A stretch of DNA of 64,000 nucleotides from Phycisphaerae bacterium (GCA_963675745.2 CAXXWX010000015.1:64001-128000), one strand, 5' to 3'; positions 21,001-27,000 are shown, numbered from the stretch's first letter. Numbers are program-made.

Positions 21001-24000
21001 AGACGAGCAAACGAAGCTGGTCATGGCCCGGATTGAGCAAGACCCGGCCCTCGCCGAGCAGCACGACGTTCTGCTGTCGGTGTTTGCCGCGTTGGAGAGT
21101 GTGCGGCGTGAGCCGATACCGGACGGCGTCGCCGACCGCATTGCCGGTCGTGTCGCGACGTCGATCAGGCGTGTCCGCGTTATCAGACCACCATCCAAGC
21201 CGGACGACGACGCCGATGCCGCCTCCGCGCCGCTGCTGATCCCCTTCAGAGGCATGCGCGAGATTATCGCCGTCGCTGCCATGATCGTGCTGGCGGTCGG
21301 TCTGGGTATTCCAGGACTGCTCAGCGTGCGTGAACGCGGCCAGCGCATCGCCTGCTCCGCGCAACTTGCCGGCATCGGTCAGGGTTTGCAGACCTATGCC
21401 GCCGGCTACAACAACAGCCTGCCGTTCGCCGGCTGGGATGAGCACAAAACCTGGGCGATGTCGGAGAATCCGGCTGACGAGATCATGCCCAACCGCCGCC
21501 ACCTGTACCGGCTGGTACGCGGGCATTACACCTCGCCGAACCGGTTCGTGTGCCCCTCGCGGATGCACGTTCCCATGCCCGATGACAAGGTCGGCGAGCT
21601 CGACGATTTCCCCGAGGCCAACAACGTCAGTTTCGCCTATCAGAACATGGCCAAAGTGCGCCCCTCGCTCGACGACAACGCGGACCTGCCTATCCTGGCC
21701 GATGACAACCCGCTCTTCGACGACGGGATCCCCGTGCTCGGATTGCTCCGCCAGGGCTTTAACGCGGCGAGCGGTAACTCCACCGCGCACCGCGGCCAGG
21801 GACAGAACATTCTCTCACTCAGCGGGCACGTTCGCTGGACCACAACACCGCTCTGCGGTTTTGATGGCGATAACATCTGGACCTTGCAGGACGTCGAATC
21901 CTACACCGGTCGCGAGGGACCCGCCTCAACACGCGACGCGCACATGCTCAAGTAGCTCCCGCTATACGCCTTGCCTATTCGACGCCGGACTCGCTGGTGC
22001 AACCTCCCGCCAGCGGGGCCGGCGTTGGTCGATTTTGAGTTTTCAGTTTTCAGTTTTCAGTGTTCAGTGTTCAGTAACGAAAGCCGTGCCCCGCCGCCGG
22101 AGGGTGCCCCGTGGCTTGCCGCGGGGGACTGACGCCACTGATCTACCTTTATCCGCGAAAACCGCGTACGATCCGTGGGGGATATGTTCACGAACGTCGC
22201 GCCGGGCCGCGGCGTTCGGTCAAAACGGAGGGTCTTGCCGTGCGCGCTGTGATTCAAGCCATTCCGCTGCTGCTCTGCCTAACGCTGGCCGCGCCAGGCT
22301 CGGCGCAAGTGCCGATCCTTGACAACATCGACGCCTTTGTCCCGGATGGTACGACCTACTACGAGAACGCGCAACTCGTCGACTACGGCGCCGGCTATGT
22401 CAGCTTCTGGGTCGTCGAGGACTTCCGCGTTGACGACCTGTCGGCCGACATCACACGCATCGAGTGGCTCGGTAAATACAGCAACGAGTACACCGGCGGC
22501 AGCGAACTGACCTACACCGCCGAGATCATCGTGCTCGAAGAGCGCGACGGCGTCATCGACCCCGACCCACTGCCCTACTACCTCGCCGAAGGCCTTACCT
22601 TTGACCGCGCCGGGACCGAGATCGGCAGCGACGTCGTCGAGCGTTTCGGCGTCGACTTACCTGTGGCCTTTGTCCTGACGCCGGGCATGCACGTTTACGT
22701 CGGCGTGCGTCTCAAGTCCGACGCCGGCTTCATCGGCGGCAACCACGGTCTCGCCTGCACGGGCAATCCGGCTTTGCCGCACAGTGACACCAGTGCCGCG
22801 TATCGCTCTGACTTCGGCTTTCCCGACTGGACGCTGATGAGCACCGAGCCGTTCTGGAACGATAACGGCCATCTCGAATACGCCATCCAGCTTCTCGGCG
22901 AACATCGCGATTGCGACGGCGACGGCACGCCGGACTATGACGAGATCCAGGGCGGCGCCGACGATTGCAACACGAACTGGGTGCCGGACGAGTGCGAGCT
23001 GGACGGCAACGACTGCAACACCAACGGCATCCCCGACGAGTGCGACATCACCTCGGGCTTCAGCCAGGACGAAAACGAAAACGACATCCCCGATGAGTGC
23101 GAATTCGATCTGGGCGACCTGAACTGCGACGGCTGGGTCAACAACGGCGACATCGACGCCTTCGTCGACGCCATCTCCGACCCACCCACCTACGCCGCCA
23201 CCTATCCCGACTGCGACATCAACCTGGGCGACATCAACCAGGACGGCTGGGTAAACAACGGCGACATCGACGCATTCGTAGACCTGATCGCGCCGCGGTA
23301 ACTCGTGCCACTGCTCTTGAGCAGTGCCGGCTCGGCGCGCGAGCCCGGTTTATTCCGTGCCCTGCTGCACGTCTCGATACTCAGACGCGGTTGCGCGTAT
23401 CGCGCAGGCCATCCGCTATTCATCGCTTGGCGGCTGCGCGATCAGGGCTTCGTCAAACGCGGTGCCGCACTCCGGGCAGCGTGGCGTGAGTTGACCGCGC
23501 AGGTCATAGCCGCAGCTCAGGCAGATCGGTATCCCCCGCTCCTGCAATTGGCGACGGAGGTGACGCCGTATCGGATTGCGCCAGAGCCACTGCATGACGC
23601 CGAAGGTCACGCCAGACAAAACCCCTCCGACCAGCCCGCCGTACGCGGCGTGTGGAATCTGTATGAACAGGCCGAGTATATGCAAGGCGGCCACCAGCAC
23701 TAAACCTCCGACAGCAAAAAAAGCCGCGACGGAGCACCAGAACGTCCATTTGCGCTGTTGGCGACGCATGGCCATGGAGAGCGCCTTCTGGCTGTCCTTC
23801 TTCGACGAAAACCGCGCTAACTCAGGGAACAGACGGCTGGAGCGGTCGCGTTGTGAAGACATTTCCGGCGAACTCCCATTGATCCAGGATGAGCGCGAAA
23901 CGCACTGCTCAAGAGCGGTGGCAGAGAACCATGCCACTACGGCGCGAGCGTTAACGTAAGGCCAACGACTGACAACTGATGGCCAACGATACCGTCGACC

Positions 24001-27000
24001 ACGCCAAACGTCCCGCCAGGGACGTGTGAACCTAGCCCAGGACGCAGTCCTGGGGTTCGGGCGTTCTTCGCGTGTGGCAAGTCCCGCCAAGGACGGACGA
24101 AAACTCGCTCGGCGCCATTATGTGATCAAAGCCCTACCCCGCGGACGGGTGATTCAGCCGTCCCTGGCGGGACTGAATCTCCTGGGCACGATCGCGGTCC
24201 CAGCATTGCATGCTGGGCTAGAGTCATCCGCCCCTGACGGGGCTACCACTCGGCGAGAAATCTGCCCGACCGTGGTGCGCGGCATGCGTGCGATCAACCG
24301 ACGGGACTGAATCTCCTGGGCACGATCGCGGTCCCAGCATTGCATGCTGGGCTAGAGTCATCCGCCCCTGACGGGGCTACCACTCGGCGAGAAATCTGCC
24401 CGACCGTGGTGCGCGGCATGCGTGCGATCAACCGACGGGACTGAATCTCCTGGGCACGATCGCGGTCCCAGCATTGCATGCTGGGCTAGAATCATCCGCC
24501 CCTGACGGGGCTGCCACTCGGCGAGAAATCTGCCCGACCGTGGTGCGCGGCATGCGTGCGATCAACCGACGGGACTGAATCTCCTGGGCATGATCGCGGT
24601 CCCAGCATTGCATGCTGGGCTAGAGTCATCCGCCCCTGACGGGGCTACCACTCGGCGAGAAATCTGCCCGACCGTGGTGCGCGGCATGCGTGCGATCAAC
24701 CGACGGCCAAGCAGACACGACGACGAACCCTCGCGAATCCAGCATGCCGCCGGCGCGGGATGTCCCGCCAGGGATATCTGAACCTAGCCCAGGACGCAAT
24801 CCTGGAACTCCAGCGCGGGCCGCGTACCGAGCGTCCCGGCAGGGACATCTGAACTTGGCCCAGGACGCAGTCCTGGGATTCGGGCGTTCTTCGCGTGTGG
24901 CAAGTCCCGCCAGGGACGACTGAACCTGGCCCAGGACGCAGTCCTGCCTCTCCAGCGCGGGCCGCGCGCCGAACTCCCCGCCAGGGACGGCTGAACGTCA
25001 ACCGAGCGCCCGCCCCGCATCGAAGTCGAATCCATGCCGCTCCAGAAACAGGCGATACTCCTCATCGAACCCACGGGCGCGGTGATGCTCGCGTTGGTTC
25101 TTGATGTACGCCATTGTGTCATCCAGTTGCGACACACCAACCGTGAAGGCCGCATAACCCTCCTGCCAGGCAAACGCCCCCATCGTCGGAAACGTGTCGT
25201 GCAGCCATTTCGACGAGCCGGCCTTGATGAGCTGAACGGCTTTGGCAACTGGCATCGTAGCGGGCAGCAGAAGAAGCACGTGTGCGTGATCGGCGATTCC
25301 GCCGGCGATGAGCAGCGTGAATTGGTTGGTGCGCGCCACGCCGCCGAGATAGGCCCACAGCCGTGGCTGGATGTCGTCGGGGATCAGCGCCCGGCGTCCC
25401 TTGGTGCTGAATACGCAGTGGAAGAGGCATTTCGTGAATGAGTGAGCCATCGGGGCGTTCTCGCGATCGGGTGATTCGGCCATCCCTAATATCGGCTGTG
25501 GCGCGCCTGCGCTGTTCCCTGCGACTCGTGATGGACCATGTTCAATTCAACCCCCACTGGACGCCGCCGGCGCGCCGGCTATGTCATGAGCCGCCCAAGG
25601 CCTCCATGGGAAACTCGACCTTTACATAGTTGCGGGCCTTGGCGTCCGCGATAACGGCCTCGCGCAGGCGGGGTGGGGCCTGGTCGTGTGGCAGGATCAT
25701 GGCGTAGGTGTTTGGCGTGCCATGCGCGGTGGCCATGCTCGCCAGTCCGGTGATCTGTCCGGCCCGCGTCGCCGCCAGCAGATGACACTTACCCTGCTCC
25801 TGCTGGCTGAGCAATTCGAGCCCGGTGAGCTCGGCGGTTACGGCCGACTCGGCCAGCGGTACGCGCGGGTCGGCGCCCGGCCGATCTTGCAGCAACGCGA
25901 CGATCAGCGGCCAGTCCGCGCGGGTCACATCGCGAATCTCGACGTCGCCGTTGCCGTCCGGCAGCGGCGTGTCGCCGGCGACACCGGCGGCCTTGCGCAT
26001 CATCATCACGTCGTCGATCGGCTCGCGCGTTACGCGGTGGGCAACCTTAAAGCCGCACTTCGCGTACAGCTCGACGAGCTCGGCATGGCAGCCCAGGTAG
26101 AGCCATTTTCCGCCGGTCATGTCGAACCACTCGAGCGCGGTCCGCAACAACTTGGTGGCCAGGCCGCGCCGGCGATGGTCGCGGCGCGTGAAAGTGTGGC
26201 CGAGCACGCCGATACCGCCTTGGCGATTGATGCAGACGTTGGCGAGCACCTCGCCGCCGTTGACGAATATGGCCAGCGCATCCTGCCCGCCGACCACCCC
26301 CTCGCACAGACGTTTCTCGATGTCTTCGAGCCACAGCGGGCCTTTGTGCCCGAGAAGTTCGCGCAGCGCGGGCCAGCGGGTCGGCGCCGGCGGAATGATC
26401 AAGAGCGGCTTCATGGGGTCGCCTGAGGCCATGGTAGACGGGTATTACCGCCCGCATGCTAACAACGTCGGCGCCGGTGTCTACCAGCCGGGCCGGTCGC
26501 GCGTTACAGTTCCCCGCGCCCGCCGGTATGGCACCGGCATGACCTGTGGACCATTCCGCCGCCGGCGGGCTGTTTCGCAGGCCGTCAAACCATGCCAGAC
26601 GTAGTGGAGCCAGCATACGCCACCCCCGCGAGGAGACACCATGGCCAAGAAGCGATCGATCCAACTTGATGACCTGTTCAAACTCCAAGTGGTGGGCGGC
26701 GTCGCCATCTCGCCTGACGGATCCCAGGTCGTGTTCGAGTTGAAGCGCGCCGACCCGGAAGACAACAAGAACTACGTCAATCTCATGCTCGTCGACGTTG
26801 CCACCGGGGCGCAGCGCAAGCTCACCGACGGCAAGCACTGCGACACATTGCCGGCCTGGGCGCCGGACGGTAAGAAGCTGGCCTTCATCTCAAATCGCGA
26901 GAAGGCCGGCGCGATTTACGTGCTGCCGATGGAAGGCGGCGAGCCGCAGCGCATCACCGACCGCGAAGGAAACGTGGGCGAGTTCCGCTGGTCTCCCAAC

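Follow-up and report, generated by a model that had tools for sequence, protein, structure and literature searches.

Acido-Lenti-1, a repeat labelled as a small RNA, is a DNA hairpin pair around a small Y1 transposase gene in several bacterial phyla

The Y1 gene of the window and its hairpin arrays

The window, a 64,000-nucleotide stretch of the genome of a Phycisphaerae bacterium (CAXXWX010000015.1:64001-128000), carries an intact Y1/HUH transposase gene of 161 aa at 24998..25483 on the minus strand (Pfam PF01797, Y1_Tnp, 86.1 bits), whose translation probably begins at the internal Met of ...MAHSF.... Alignment A1 showed the HUH motif as DHAHV and the tyrosine motif as YIKNQREHH. The NCBIfam IS200/IS605 model NF033573 scored the protein at 61.1 bits (cut-off 55), whereas the RAYT model NF047646 gave 16.1 bits against a cut-off of 80; on these scores the protein is IS200-like and not a canonical RAYT, contrary to the RAYT-REP pairing of the preliminary description. 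The best solved-structure match was IS608 TnpA (E 8.7e-7), to which both DHAHV and the Tyr of YIKNQ aligned in their correct places.

Alongside the gene, cmscan reported six RF01687 (Acido-Lenti-1) matches of 27.1-32.2 bits, none in the window reaching the gathering cut-off of 37 bits that is required for membership. Four were on the plus strand, 134 bp apart (24199, 24333, 24467, and 24601), and two on the minus strand (24009 and 24832), with the closest ending 121 bp from the Y1 gene. The locus as first described, an intact Y1/HUH gene with six sub-threshold matches beside it and four of these in a 134-bp x4 array, was therefore confirmed.

The gene-proximal arm (24762..24996, minus strand) was resolved by TRF into 3.3 copies of a 71-bp unit and included the RF01687 match at 24832-24877(-) (27.1 bits). 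The unit consisted of hairpin A (GTCCC..GGGAC), the segment CTGAAC..TAG and hairpin B (CCCAGGAC..GTCCTGGG), and the final half-motif of the arm adjoined the Y1 stop codon. The arm folded as DNA at -13 kcal/mol (z -2.5), and Y1 units of other genomes have arms built in the same way. TRF also delimited a tandem array of 4.0 copies of a 134-bp unit (24168..24706, plus strand, 98% matches; fold z -2.5) containing four RF01687 matches of 31.1-32.2 bits. Each 134-bp unit held one motif in the orientation opposite to that of the gene-proximal arm, and the array resembles a displaced and amplified 'other arm' of the Y1 unit. No Logan contig crossed the array, and the contig of its unit had a depth of 24 vs ~8 alongside, a weak signal.

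The array was opened by a half-motif hairpin, read by eye (24140..24190, plus strand; GATTCAG CC GTCCC TGGC GGGAC TGAATC; fold -10.3 kcal/mol, z -1.8), and the outermost motif copy was found at 24009..24054 on the minus strand (29.2 bits; DNA fold -18.4 kcal/mol, z -4.7). The 5' side of the gene showed a truncated half-motif stub just upstream of the Y1 start (GGGTGATTCGGCCATCCCT; 25455..25478, plus strand, read by eye), of the same sequence type as the half-motif that opens the array (compared with 24148-24170). Between 25484 and 25700, the place of a second arm, there was no RF01687 match, and the window gene has an arm on its 3' side only. None of the window hairpins coincided with a terminator-like site.

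Acido-Lenti-1 is a two-hairpin DNA module made of hairpin B with an unpaired nTAG head, a linker of ~12 nt and hairpin A. The head was REP-like nTAG in 55 of 58 instances (ATAG 29, GTAG 16, TTAG 5, and CTAG 5) and strictly GTAG in only 16 of the 58. The compensatory stem changes noted earlier are real: in 58 distinct 46-nt matches, picked by the covariance model, which favours pairing, pairs 3-8 of hairpin 1 each showed 2-5 standard pair types at 98-100% pairing. Such covariation is compatible with RNA as much as with single-stranded DNA.

Acido-Lenti-1 beside Y1 genes of relatives and other phyla

The proposed tie between Acido-Lenti-1 and a Y1 gene held well outside this genome, with inverted copies bracketing Y1 homologues in many genomes and phyla. 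All 13 Y1 loci of relatives had an RF01687 match in their 1.2-kb flanks. At 10 of these loci matches were present on both sides, minus-strand on the low side and plus-strand on the high side, and the remaining three were one-sided, two of them contig-end cases (L013 runs into an end and L015 starts near one). Y1 loci of other clades in the relatives showed no RF01687 match (0/4).

The check that the preliminary description lacked, on Acido-Lenti-1 beside Y1 genes elsewhere, was made with 40 loci of Y1 homologues from named genomes of Acidobacteriota, Verrucomicrobiota, Planctomycetota, and other phyla. At least one RF01687 match (E<=0.01) was present in the 1.2-kb flanks of 34 of the 40, with 22 above the gathering score, and there was no match at six. 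The stereotyped inverted pair, with both canonical places filled, was found at 18 loci, and the median gaps between motif and gene on the two sides were 55 and 69 bp. In a tree of 58 Y1 proteins, the 46 motif-flanked ones were scattered across the whole subfamily.

Motif copy number among relatives ranged from 0 to 73 and was 0 in two same-genus genomes. By our own tally, a Y1 homologue was present in all 17 relatives with at least 10 motif copies, and in 31 of 42 motif-positive vs 5 of 19 motif-negative relatives, these being related genomes and not independent; the other 11 motif-positive relatives had no Y1 match. The five aligned dispersed copies (of 17 matches) in an Acidobacteriaceae genome were single arms of ~95-115 bp, with the same layout as the arm adjoining the Y1 gene of that genome.

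The module anatomy and the association with Y1 genes across phyla are direct observations, and the repeat labelled as a small RNA is a DNA hairpin pair around a small Y1 gene in several bacterial phyla. Inverted copies of the module form two arms around a Y1/HUH gene of ~150 aa, giving a REPtron-like unit, and this gene belongs to an IS200-like subfamily, whose signature is Y---Q--HH with a conserved C-terminal tail. The window contains one such unit, with an intact gene, a multi-copy 3' arm and a truncated 5' stub. From its likeness to IS608 TnpA and E. coli TnpA-REP, the Y1 enzyme would be expected to bind these hairpins when they fold in single-stranded DNA and to cleave next to them.

Dispersed 271-bp copies, their ends and their likely carrier

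The genome contained 48 RF01687 matches at E<=1e-3, of which 20 were above the gathering cut-off. A palindromic repeat of ~271 bp held 39 of the 48 and 17 of the 20, and the other three above the cut-off, which were the best-scoring, formed a separate cluster at C16:260333-260613; the earlier statement that all Acido-Lenti-1 matches lie in a 270-bp repeat is therefore right for 17 of 20 and inexact for these three. The repeat occurred in 26 near-full and ~5 partial copies, and each copy also matched itself reversed, as had been described. By crude gene calls, none of 32 dispersed elements was within a called ORF, and of 30 classifiable elements 23 were in tandem or divergent intergenic regions and seven in convergent ones. 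There were six Y1_Tnp loci in this genome, and the intact window gene was the only one with the Acido-Lenti-1 hairpin type. Crudely taken 400-bp flanks of three loci matched many others (23 + 17 for C26, 15 + 15 for C1, and 16 + 1 for the window gene), and one such flank of the C24 gene matched 135.

The 271-bp copies had terminal inverted repeats of ~24 bp (GGGnCCGTGACAC...CGGCGG) and flanking 9-bp target duplications. Direct repeats exactly abutting the element ends were perfect at 8 of 24 copies and matched at 8 of 9 positions at a further 5, compared with 3 perfect and 27 at 8 of 9 in 552 mismatched left/right pairs (at least 8 of 9: 13/24 vs 30/552). The remaining 11 copies matched at 7 of 9 or fewer. 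In 12 aligned copies from another genus (G026), L027 matched at 9 of 9, and L034 and L036 at 8 of 9. A second family of 648 bp had the same ends and held a broken Y1 gene of another clade with different hairpins. The 650-730-bp element of the preliminary description was multicopy as stated (6 copies, 96-99.5% identity), and its terminal inverted repeats, 9-bp duplications and Y1 remnant make it more than the composite of repeat units it had been taken for.

The ends of the 271-bp family also bounded a 1525-bp element in a relative (G024:C211:1751-3275). Its 366-aa ORF matched the NCBIfam ISKra4 transposase with E 6e-59 and 200.2 bits vs a cut-off of 205; the first ~100 profile positions were missing from this ORF and sat in a separate upstream ORF. 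The left end of the element was identical at 24/24 nt to the 648-bp family and at 23/24 to the 271-bp family. In four relatives the end pattern occurred 21-83 times vs 0-1 for the reversed pattern, and in G008 it bracketed motif doublets. An element of ~839 bp in G031 lacked a DDE gene and consisted of ends, hairpins, an intact Y1 gene and hairpins; the six loci examined showed 91-97% identity, four had an intact gene, and the duplications in L079 and L070 matched at 8 of 9. The target duplications and the common ends, like the module anatomy, are observed directly.

ISKra4 transposase was found with this query in 12 of 61 relatives and, by our own tally, in 6 of 17 motif-rich ones. No ISKra4 transposase was found in the assembly of this genome, which is 91% complete, and none of its assembled DDE elements had the 271-bp ends. 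Multicopy insertion sequences are often missing from assemblies. The two full ISKra4 copies examined (G024 and G019) showed no target duplication. A pair of these ends bounded none of the 93 Y1 loci in the motif-bearing subfamily, so an intact parent with ends, Acido-Lenti-1 arms and Y1 gene was not found. The available text of PMC3942029 describes ISKra4 elements as having 18-39-bp inverted repeats and 8- or 9-bp duplications, ranges into which the 271-bp copies fall, and as being present in Planctomycetes and carrying passenger genes at times.

Since the 271-bp ends are those of an ISKra4-family insertion sequence, we take the copies to be MITEs. The two layers jointly, with Acido-Lenti-1 forming the arms of Y1 units and the 271-bp copies being ISKra4-type MITEs that carry Y1 hairpins as cargo, are to our judgement the probable explanation. 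The layout of the 271-bp element is that of the Y1-unit arms with the gene subtracted, and the ~26 dispersed copies would thus be Y1 units minus the gene (arm, two half-motifs, arm) between ends of ~24 bp, moved in trans by an ISKra4-family (Mutator-superfamily DDE) transposase, a cut-and-paste enzyme unrelated to Y1. We infer the activities of both enzymes, the succession of the steps and the identity of the ISKra4 copy that acted in this genome. The preliminary description had attributed the spread of the repeat to the Y1 enzyme, against which the ~24-bp inverted repeats and 9-bp duplications, as in an ISKra4-family DDE element, now argue.

The same observations make it improbable that the 271-bp doublets are REPINs for which the Y1 enzyme did the copying, acting on single-stranded hairpins in RAYT/REPIN fashion. 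HUH Y1 transposition is not known to leave a target duplication. Both the duplications and the ~24-bp inverted repeats are foreign to IS200/IS605 and REP systems as the accessible parts of the literature describe them, and the 271-bp ends also bound a DDE transposase gene and a second repeat family with different hairpins. However, the pairing of two inverted motifs in a doublet resembles a REPIN, the one Y1 locus here that has this hairpin type is intact, and the five aligned Acidobacteriaceae arms had no DDE-type ends, so some spread has occurred elsewhere without ISKra4 ends.

We give equally little credence to the palindromic copies being kept, whatever their spreader, for a regulatory or structural use by the host (as mRNA stabilisers, protein-binding sites or promoter-proximal insulators), in which case the repeat would matter for its position relative to genes. 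The crude gene calls place 0/32 elements inside ORFs and 23/30 in tandem or divergent regions, but also 7/30 in convergent ones. For several ISKra4 elements PMC3942029 reports insertion at 13-17 bp upstream of sigma-A promoters, which fits such a role; that insertion habit alone could also yield the copies upstream of genes seen in the preliminary description.

That Acido-Lenti-1 is a small non-coding or cis-acting RNA, as in Rfam, with the Y1 and MITE context secondary, is the least credible reading: its stems covary, the available part of Weinberg 2010 graded it a probable RNA from covariation, and the location of all 32 dispersed elements outside crudely called ORFs makes co-transcription with neighbouring genes possible, but the copies are inverted pairs, so no single strand is favoured, their number varies among relatives from 73 down to 0, even in two same-genus genomes, the motif flanks a transposase gene at stereotyped positions on either side in several phyla, and the window hairpins match no terminator-like site.

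Within the two-layer explanation, we offer tentatively, as a possibility short of even chance, that Y1-plus-hairpin units are regular cargo of ISKra4-type elements and not chance passengers. The same DDE ends enclosed two or more Y1 clades with hairpins particular to each. The Acido-Lenti-1 type was present in three genera in the form of gene-less doublets, and the second clade occurred in G031 as intact cassettes of ~839 bp and here as broken 648-bp copies. If this were so, the DDE transposase would be a vehicle seeding REP-like hairpin families and Y1 genes around and between genomes, and the Y1/hairpin module may repay its host element, for example in element folding or the processing of single-stranded intermediates. 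A partnership of two transposases would then account for some of the abundance of this 'orphan RNA family', as its footprint.

Comparison with known systems

The window protein shares with IS200/IS605 elements its transposase family, with HUH motif and catalytic Tyr, and has IS608 TnpA as its nearest solved structure. In contrast to the many near-identical copies with same-orientation subterminal hairpins of that family, there is one gene here, without multiple identical copies or tnpB, and its hairpins are inverted, not parallel. Compared by eye with alignment A1, the TnpA-Y1 'subclass 1.2' described by Quentin et al. (2018, PMC6006769) resembles the window protein in Y---Q--HH, the conserved C-terminal extension, low copy number and the lack of IS200-type ends. 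However, members of that subclass are said to be 'generally without' terminal secondary structures and to come mostly from Cyanobacteria and Bacteroidetes, whereas the homologues here are hairpin-bracketed and come from Acidobacteriota, Verrucomicrobiota, and Planctomycetota.

TIRtron/TIRYT systems (Di Nocera et al. 2013, PMC3733652) are similar in that tyrosine-transposase genes, including those of Acidobacteria, are flanked by inverted repeats of a repeat family. In the available text these repeats (GGGGWSAS type) are taken as the Y1 enzyme's own sites, and unlike here neither target duplication nor DDE partner is mentioned in it ('duplication' 0, 'TSD' 0). For Rhodopirellula baltica and PVC bacteria the same text describes both GTAG repeats and repeat-flanked tyrosine-transposase genes; an extension of REPtrons to Planctomycetota, as previously claimed, is thus not new, such REP-type repeats having been described there already.

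The 271-bp copies are like ISKra4 elements, MITEs, and mobile insertion cassettes in their ~24-bp inverted repeats starting GGG, their 9-bp duplications, their small size without a transposase gene, and the ends they share with the 1525-bp element coding an ISKra4-type DDE transposase. They differ in that the autonomous partner was found in a relative and not in their own genome, and in that elements with these ends carry a Y1 gene together with its hairpins, or the same unit with the gene deleted.

REPtrons, the REP/REPIN systems with RAYT genes of E. coli and Pseudomonas, likewise have a Y1/HUH gene bracketed by inverted short palindromic modules with an unpaired (G/A)TAG head, an arrangement seen here at the two-sided loci of relatives (10/13) and other phyla (18/40) and, one-sided with a stub, in the window. 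The module is also intergenic and dispersed as singles, inverted doublets, and clusters, and this genome has one gene of this hairpin type. Unlike REPtrons, whose RAYT class has Y---NP (PMC6006769) and whose dispersed units are without terminal inverted repeats or duplications, the protein here is IS200-like with Y---Q--HH, the module has two hairpins, and its doublets carry DDE-type ends and 9-bp duplications.

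The Y1 gene of the window and the motif across the source genome

The window carries a 161-aa Y1/HUH open reading frame at 24998-25483 on the minus strand (Pfam Y1_Tnp, 86.1 bits), and the alignment placed its DHAHV (HUH) motif and catalytic tyrosine (YIKNQ) in register with those of IS608 TnpA. Two tandem arrays lie on the 3' side of the gene, one of 71-bp units (3.3 copies, 24762-24996) and one of 134-bp units (4.0 copies, 24168-24706). The sole remnant on the 5' side, read from the sequence, is a truncated half-hairpin at 25455-25478. The 3'-side repeats hold six matches to Acido-Lenti-1 (RF01687), which score 27-32 bits where the gathering score is 37; four are on the plus strand at 134-bp spacing and two on the minus strand. 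Two tRNAs are the only Rfam hits that the window gives at the gathering cut-off; the tRNA genes stand at 43639-43712 and 43775-43860 (-). The preliminary description, which had reported a Y1 gene with a motif array here, was sound in this observation. As single-stranded DNA the window motifs folded into two hairpins (z-scores -2.5 to -4.7), and a terminator scan showed no site at them. None of the Logan contigs spans the arrays, and the contig breaks fall inside them. A look-up of 23900-25600 for RNA data listed no entry.

A search of the source genome gave 48 RF01687 matches at E<=1e-3, of which 20 exceeded the cut-off. Most of them, 39 of the full set and 17 of those 20, lie in an imperfect palindrome of about 271 bp that occurs in 26 nearly full-length copies and a few incomplete ones. 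The profile of this element found one further similar region only in the genome, the window array. A 102-bp mini derivative at C15:309892-309993 retains the two ends and a single hairpin but has lost its entire centre. The three best matches (45.6-51.8 bits) form a separate cluster at C16:260333-260613, which is BIME-like, has a different hairpin variant and lies outside the 271-bp family; no Y1 gene adjoins it within the 800 bp read.

Six Y1_Tnp loci were found in this genome. The window gene alone belongs to the hairpin-matching group, and the next closest is 46% identical. A second Y1 gene of the window, at 2838-3812 (+) and 324 aa long, matched the RAYT model best in NCBIfam (61.7 bits, cut-off 80), and its flanks, taken crudely as 400 bp, matched 2 and 5 loci only. 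For the Y1 gene at C24:43709-44053 (+; the gene is longer), the 400-bp low-coordinate flank matched 135 loci, far more than for any other repeat family seen in the genome.

Acido-Lenti-1 beside Y1 genes in other genomes

Motif copies numbered from 0 to 73 per genome in a set of 61 genomes of one order (the source genome and 60 others) and were zero in two of the three same-genus genomes. Thirteen Y1 loci of relatives were fetched because their coordinates adjoined motif matches, and 10 of these had RF01687 on both sides, (-) then (+). The three one-sided loci were L013, which runs into a contig end, L015, which starts near one, and L021, with one weak match. The flank scan gave no RF01687 match at four loci of other Y1 clades.

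We also compared the Y1 protein alignment with a collection of species-representative genomes, which returned 592 relatives; the best 80 were kept and the first 40 of them were scanned with Rfam. RF01687 matches at E<=0.01 lay beside 34 of the 40 loci, matches over the gathering score beside 22, and the canonical inverted pair was present at 18, while 6 had no match. The (-) match ended at a median of 55 bp ahead of the gene; the (+) match began at a median of 69 bp beyond it. The scanned loci came from Acidobacteriota, Verrucomicrobiota, Planctomycetota, Hydrogenedentota, Calditrichota, Sumerlaeota and others. In a tree of 58 Y1 proteins, whose bootstrap was not settled, the 46 motif-flanked genes were dispersed over the whole subfamily; the unflanked ones formed one clade with other hairpins and one small clade, with four scattered. 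Pairs 3-8 of hairpin B showed 2-5 pair types and 98-100% pairing among 58 distinct 46-nt matches, which had been picked by a structure-aware model, and TAG stood directly 5' of hairpin B, on the opposite strand, in 55 of the 58. Acido-Lenti-1 is tied to Y1 genes, widely, across several phyla. The core idea already put forward for this genome, that the motif represents Y1 hairpins and not an sRNA, was sound and now extends to several phyla.

In Y1 units elsewhere, each arm consists of a full motif and a half-motif (hairpin A plus GACTGAA) that abuts the gene. The 271-bp element has the same layout, with 4 nt instead of a gene between its two half-motifs. The 271-bp element is therefore a Y1 unit minus its gene. 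In the other genomes no inverted or direct repeats were found outside the Y1 units, except at L007, a locus of a relative (G059:C59). Here a perfect 23-bp direct repeat, TCACCATTCAGGCCCACCGTCGT, at 1476-1498 and 2270-2292 encloses a complete unit of Y1 gene and arms (about 780 bp) and may represent either a long target duplication or insertion into another repeat.

ISKra4-type ends and the spread of the gene-less copies

The alignment of the 271-bp copies has sharp limits, GGGnCCGTGACAC... at one side and ...GTGTCACGGnCCC at the other. The 9-bp sequences exactly abutting these ends were identical direct repeats (9/9) in 8 of 24 copies, agreed at 8/9 in 5 and at 7 or fewer in 11, against 3 with 9/9 and 27 with 8/9 among 552 mismatched left/right control pairs. 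Copies in G026, a genome of another genus, had the same ends, with duplications of 9/9 at L027 and 8/9 at L034 and L036. Mobilisation of the 271-bp copies by the Y1 enzyme, as earlier proposed, is contradicted in the source genome by these DDE-type ends and target duplications.

A complete 1525-bp element with 271-bp-type ends was found in the relative G024 (C211:1751-3275). It contains a 123-aa zinc-ribbon ORF and a 366-aa ORF that matched the NCBIfam ISKra4 transposase over profile positions 100-421 (E 6e-59, 200.2 bits, cut-off 205). At the left end it shares 24/24 nt with a 648-bp family of the source genome and 23/24 with the 271-bp family. Three contigs of G024 open with the last ~40 residues of the ISKra4 protein, followed by the end repeat. 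The two full ISKra4 copies examined had no target duplication of their own. Passages of PMC3942029 describe a Mutator-related group to which ISKra4 belongs, whose inverted repeats measure 18-39 bp and whose duplications measure 8 or 9 bp; the group is represented in Planctomycetes and occasionally carries passenger genes. The ISKra4 query had matches in 12 of the 61 relatives only, and model and protein searches did not find the transposase in the source genome (assembly 91% complete).

Other candidate partners did not share the MITE ends. In the source genome these were PF00872 (1 locus) and PF01609 (16 loci, with three multicopy families whose ends are CACCGGTTT.., CAGGGCGATCGC.. and TAACCCGG..), and in G026 an 11-copy ISKra4-like element (34% identity), considered as partner of the old doublets there, has different ends (GGGTCGGCATCAAC..). 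The three DDE_Tnp_1 families of the source genome measure 1538 bp (C15:287091, C22:48925, C26:387051, C27:153033), 1312 bp (C2:82629, C26:693959, C27:215726) and 1467 bp (C18:24296, C6:239383, C12:13379); they show 97.5-100% identity, and in two the inverted-repeat ends are clear (CACCGGTTT.., CAGGGCGATCGC..). A member of these families directly adjoins the 271-bp MITE at C27:215311-215572.

The 648-bp family occupies six loci at 96-99.5% identity (C7:90900-91547, C19:395351-395998, C27:220999-221641, C27:239930-240572, C15:318579-319307 and C6:165270-165799), with variants of 729 and 530 bp and the ends of the 271-bp element. Inside these elements lies a Y1 gene of another clade that has an internal deletion, together with the hairpins belonging to that clade, and an intact relative of the broken gene lies at C26:449084-449530. 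The member at C15:318579-319307 has a perfect 9-bp duplication. The family looks recently mobile, although no transposase for it was found in the source genome. Its counterpart in the relative G031 is a cassette of about 839 bp at six loci (L079:1017-1855 on C1 and five more; 91-97% identity), made up of ISKra4-type ends, hairpins, Y1 and hairpins, with the Y1 gene intact in 4 of 6 and no DDE or other gene. Two of these cassettes, L079 and L070, have 8/9 duplications. The G031 element is a mobile insertion cassette carrying a transposase of another class.

Four relatives contained the end pattern 21-83 times, compared with 0-1 for the reversed pattern, and in many cases a contig end was about 118 bp away. 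Y1 coding sequences also contain the 12-nt core of the ISKra4-type end, GGGTGCATGACA (L110:1336, L114:1460, L115:1472, L134:1436, L166:1460, L016:1884), where it appears to encode a conserved W-V-H-D-T; this is probably coincidence.

ISKra4-type ends were absent from the whole window in a scan allowing up to 3 mismatches. In the motif-bearing subfamily 93 Y1 loci were searched for a bounding pair of such ends, and none had one; the search thus found no intact parent for the 271-bp MITE. The dispersed copies aligned from an Acidobacteriaceae genome were single arms that lack ISKra4-type ends. The DDE route does not account for all of the spread of the motif family. At the insertion sites of the source genome, same-genus genomes matched in the coding parts only (77-79%), with no synteny across the insertion, and no empty site was seen. 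Crude gene calls (minimum ORF length 100 aa, minimum GC3 0.78) placed 15 of 32 elements between tandem genes, 8 between divergent and 7 between convergent genes, with 2 unclassified. Several ISKra4 members insert 13-17 bp upstream of sigma-A promoters, according to a passage of PMC3942029, and such a preference could explain the copies upstream of genes that had been observed earlier.

Significance and comparison with known systems

As an arm of a Y1/HUH gene, Acido-Lenti-1 gains a testable function, and its matches should then not be counted as sRNA genes. The parts of the literature describing the motif that were available link it to no transposase; for the PMC2864571 supplement these were table rows and the seed alignment. 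A 2026 preprint, in the excerpt available, calls its function unknown. The DDE ends and target duplications mean that a REPIN-like doublet does not require its own Y1 enzyme to move, which is relevant to studies that treat REPIN populations as replicators bound to a single RAYT.

The window Y1 protein fits the NCBIfam IS200/IS605 model (61 bits, cut-off 55) and not the RAYT one (16 bits, cut-off 80). Its Y---Q--HH motif and C-terminal tail agree with those of 'subclass 1.2' in PMC6006769, as matched by eye and not with the models of that study. The available text of PMC6006769 characterises members of this subclass as low in copy number and as a rule lacking terminal structures; the motif would give it hairpin partners. 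Koribacter, Solibacter, Lentisphaera and Rhodopirellula do not appear in the supplements seen. Passages of PMC3733652 report GTAG-headed REPs and repeat-flanked tyrosine-transposase genes in Rhodopirellula baltica, Opitutus terrae and Acidobacteria, and REPtron-like systems are therefore not new to Planctomycetota, to which the preliminary description would have extended them. What is new, as a variation on known kinds of element, is the occurrence of a REPtron-like cargo inside ISKra4-type non-autonomous elements.
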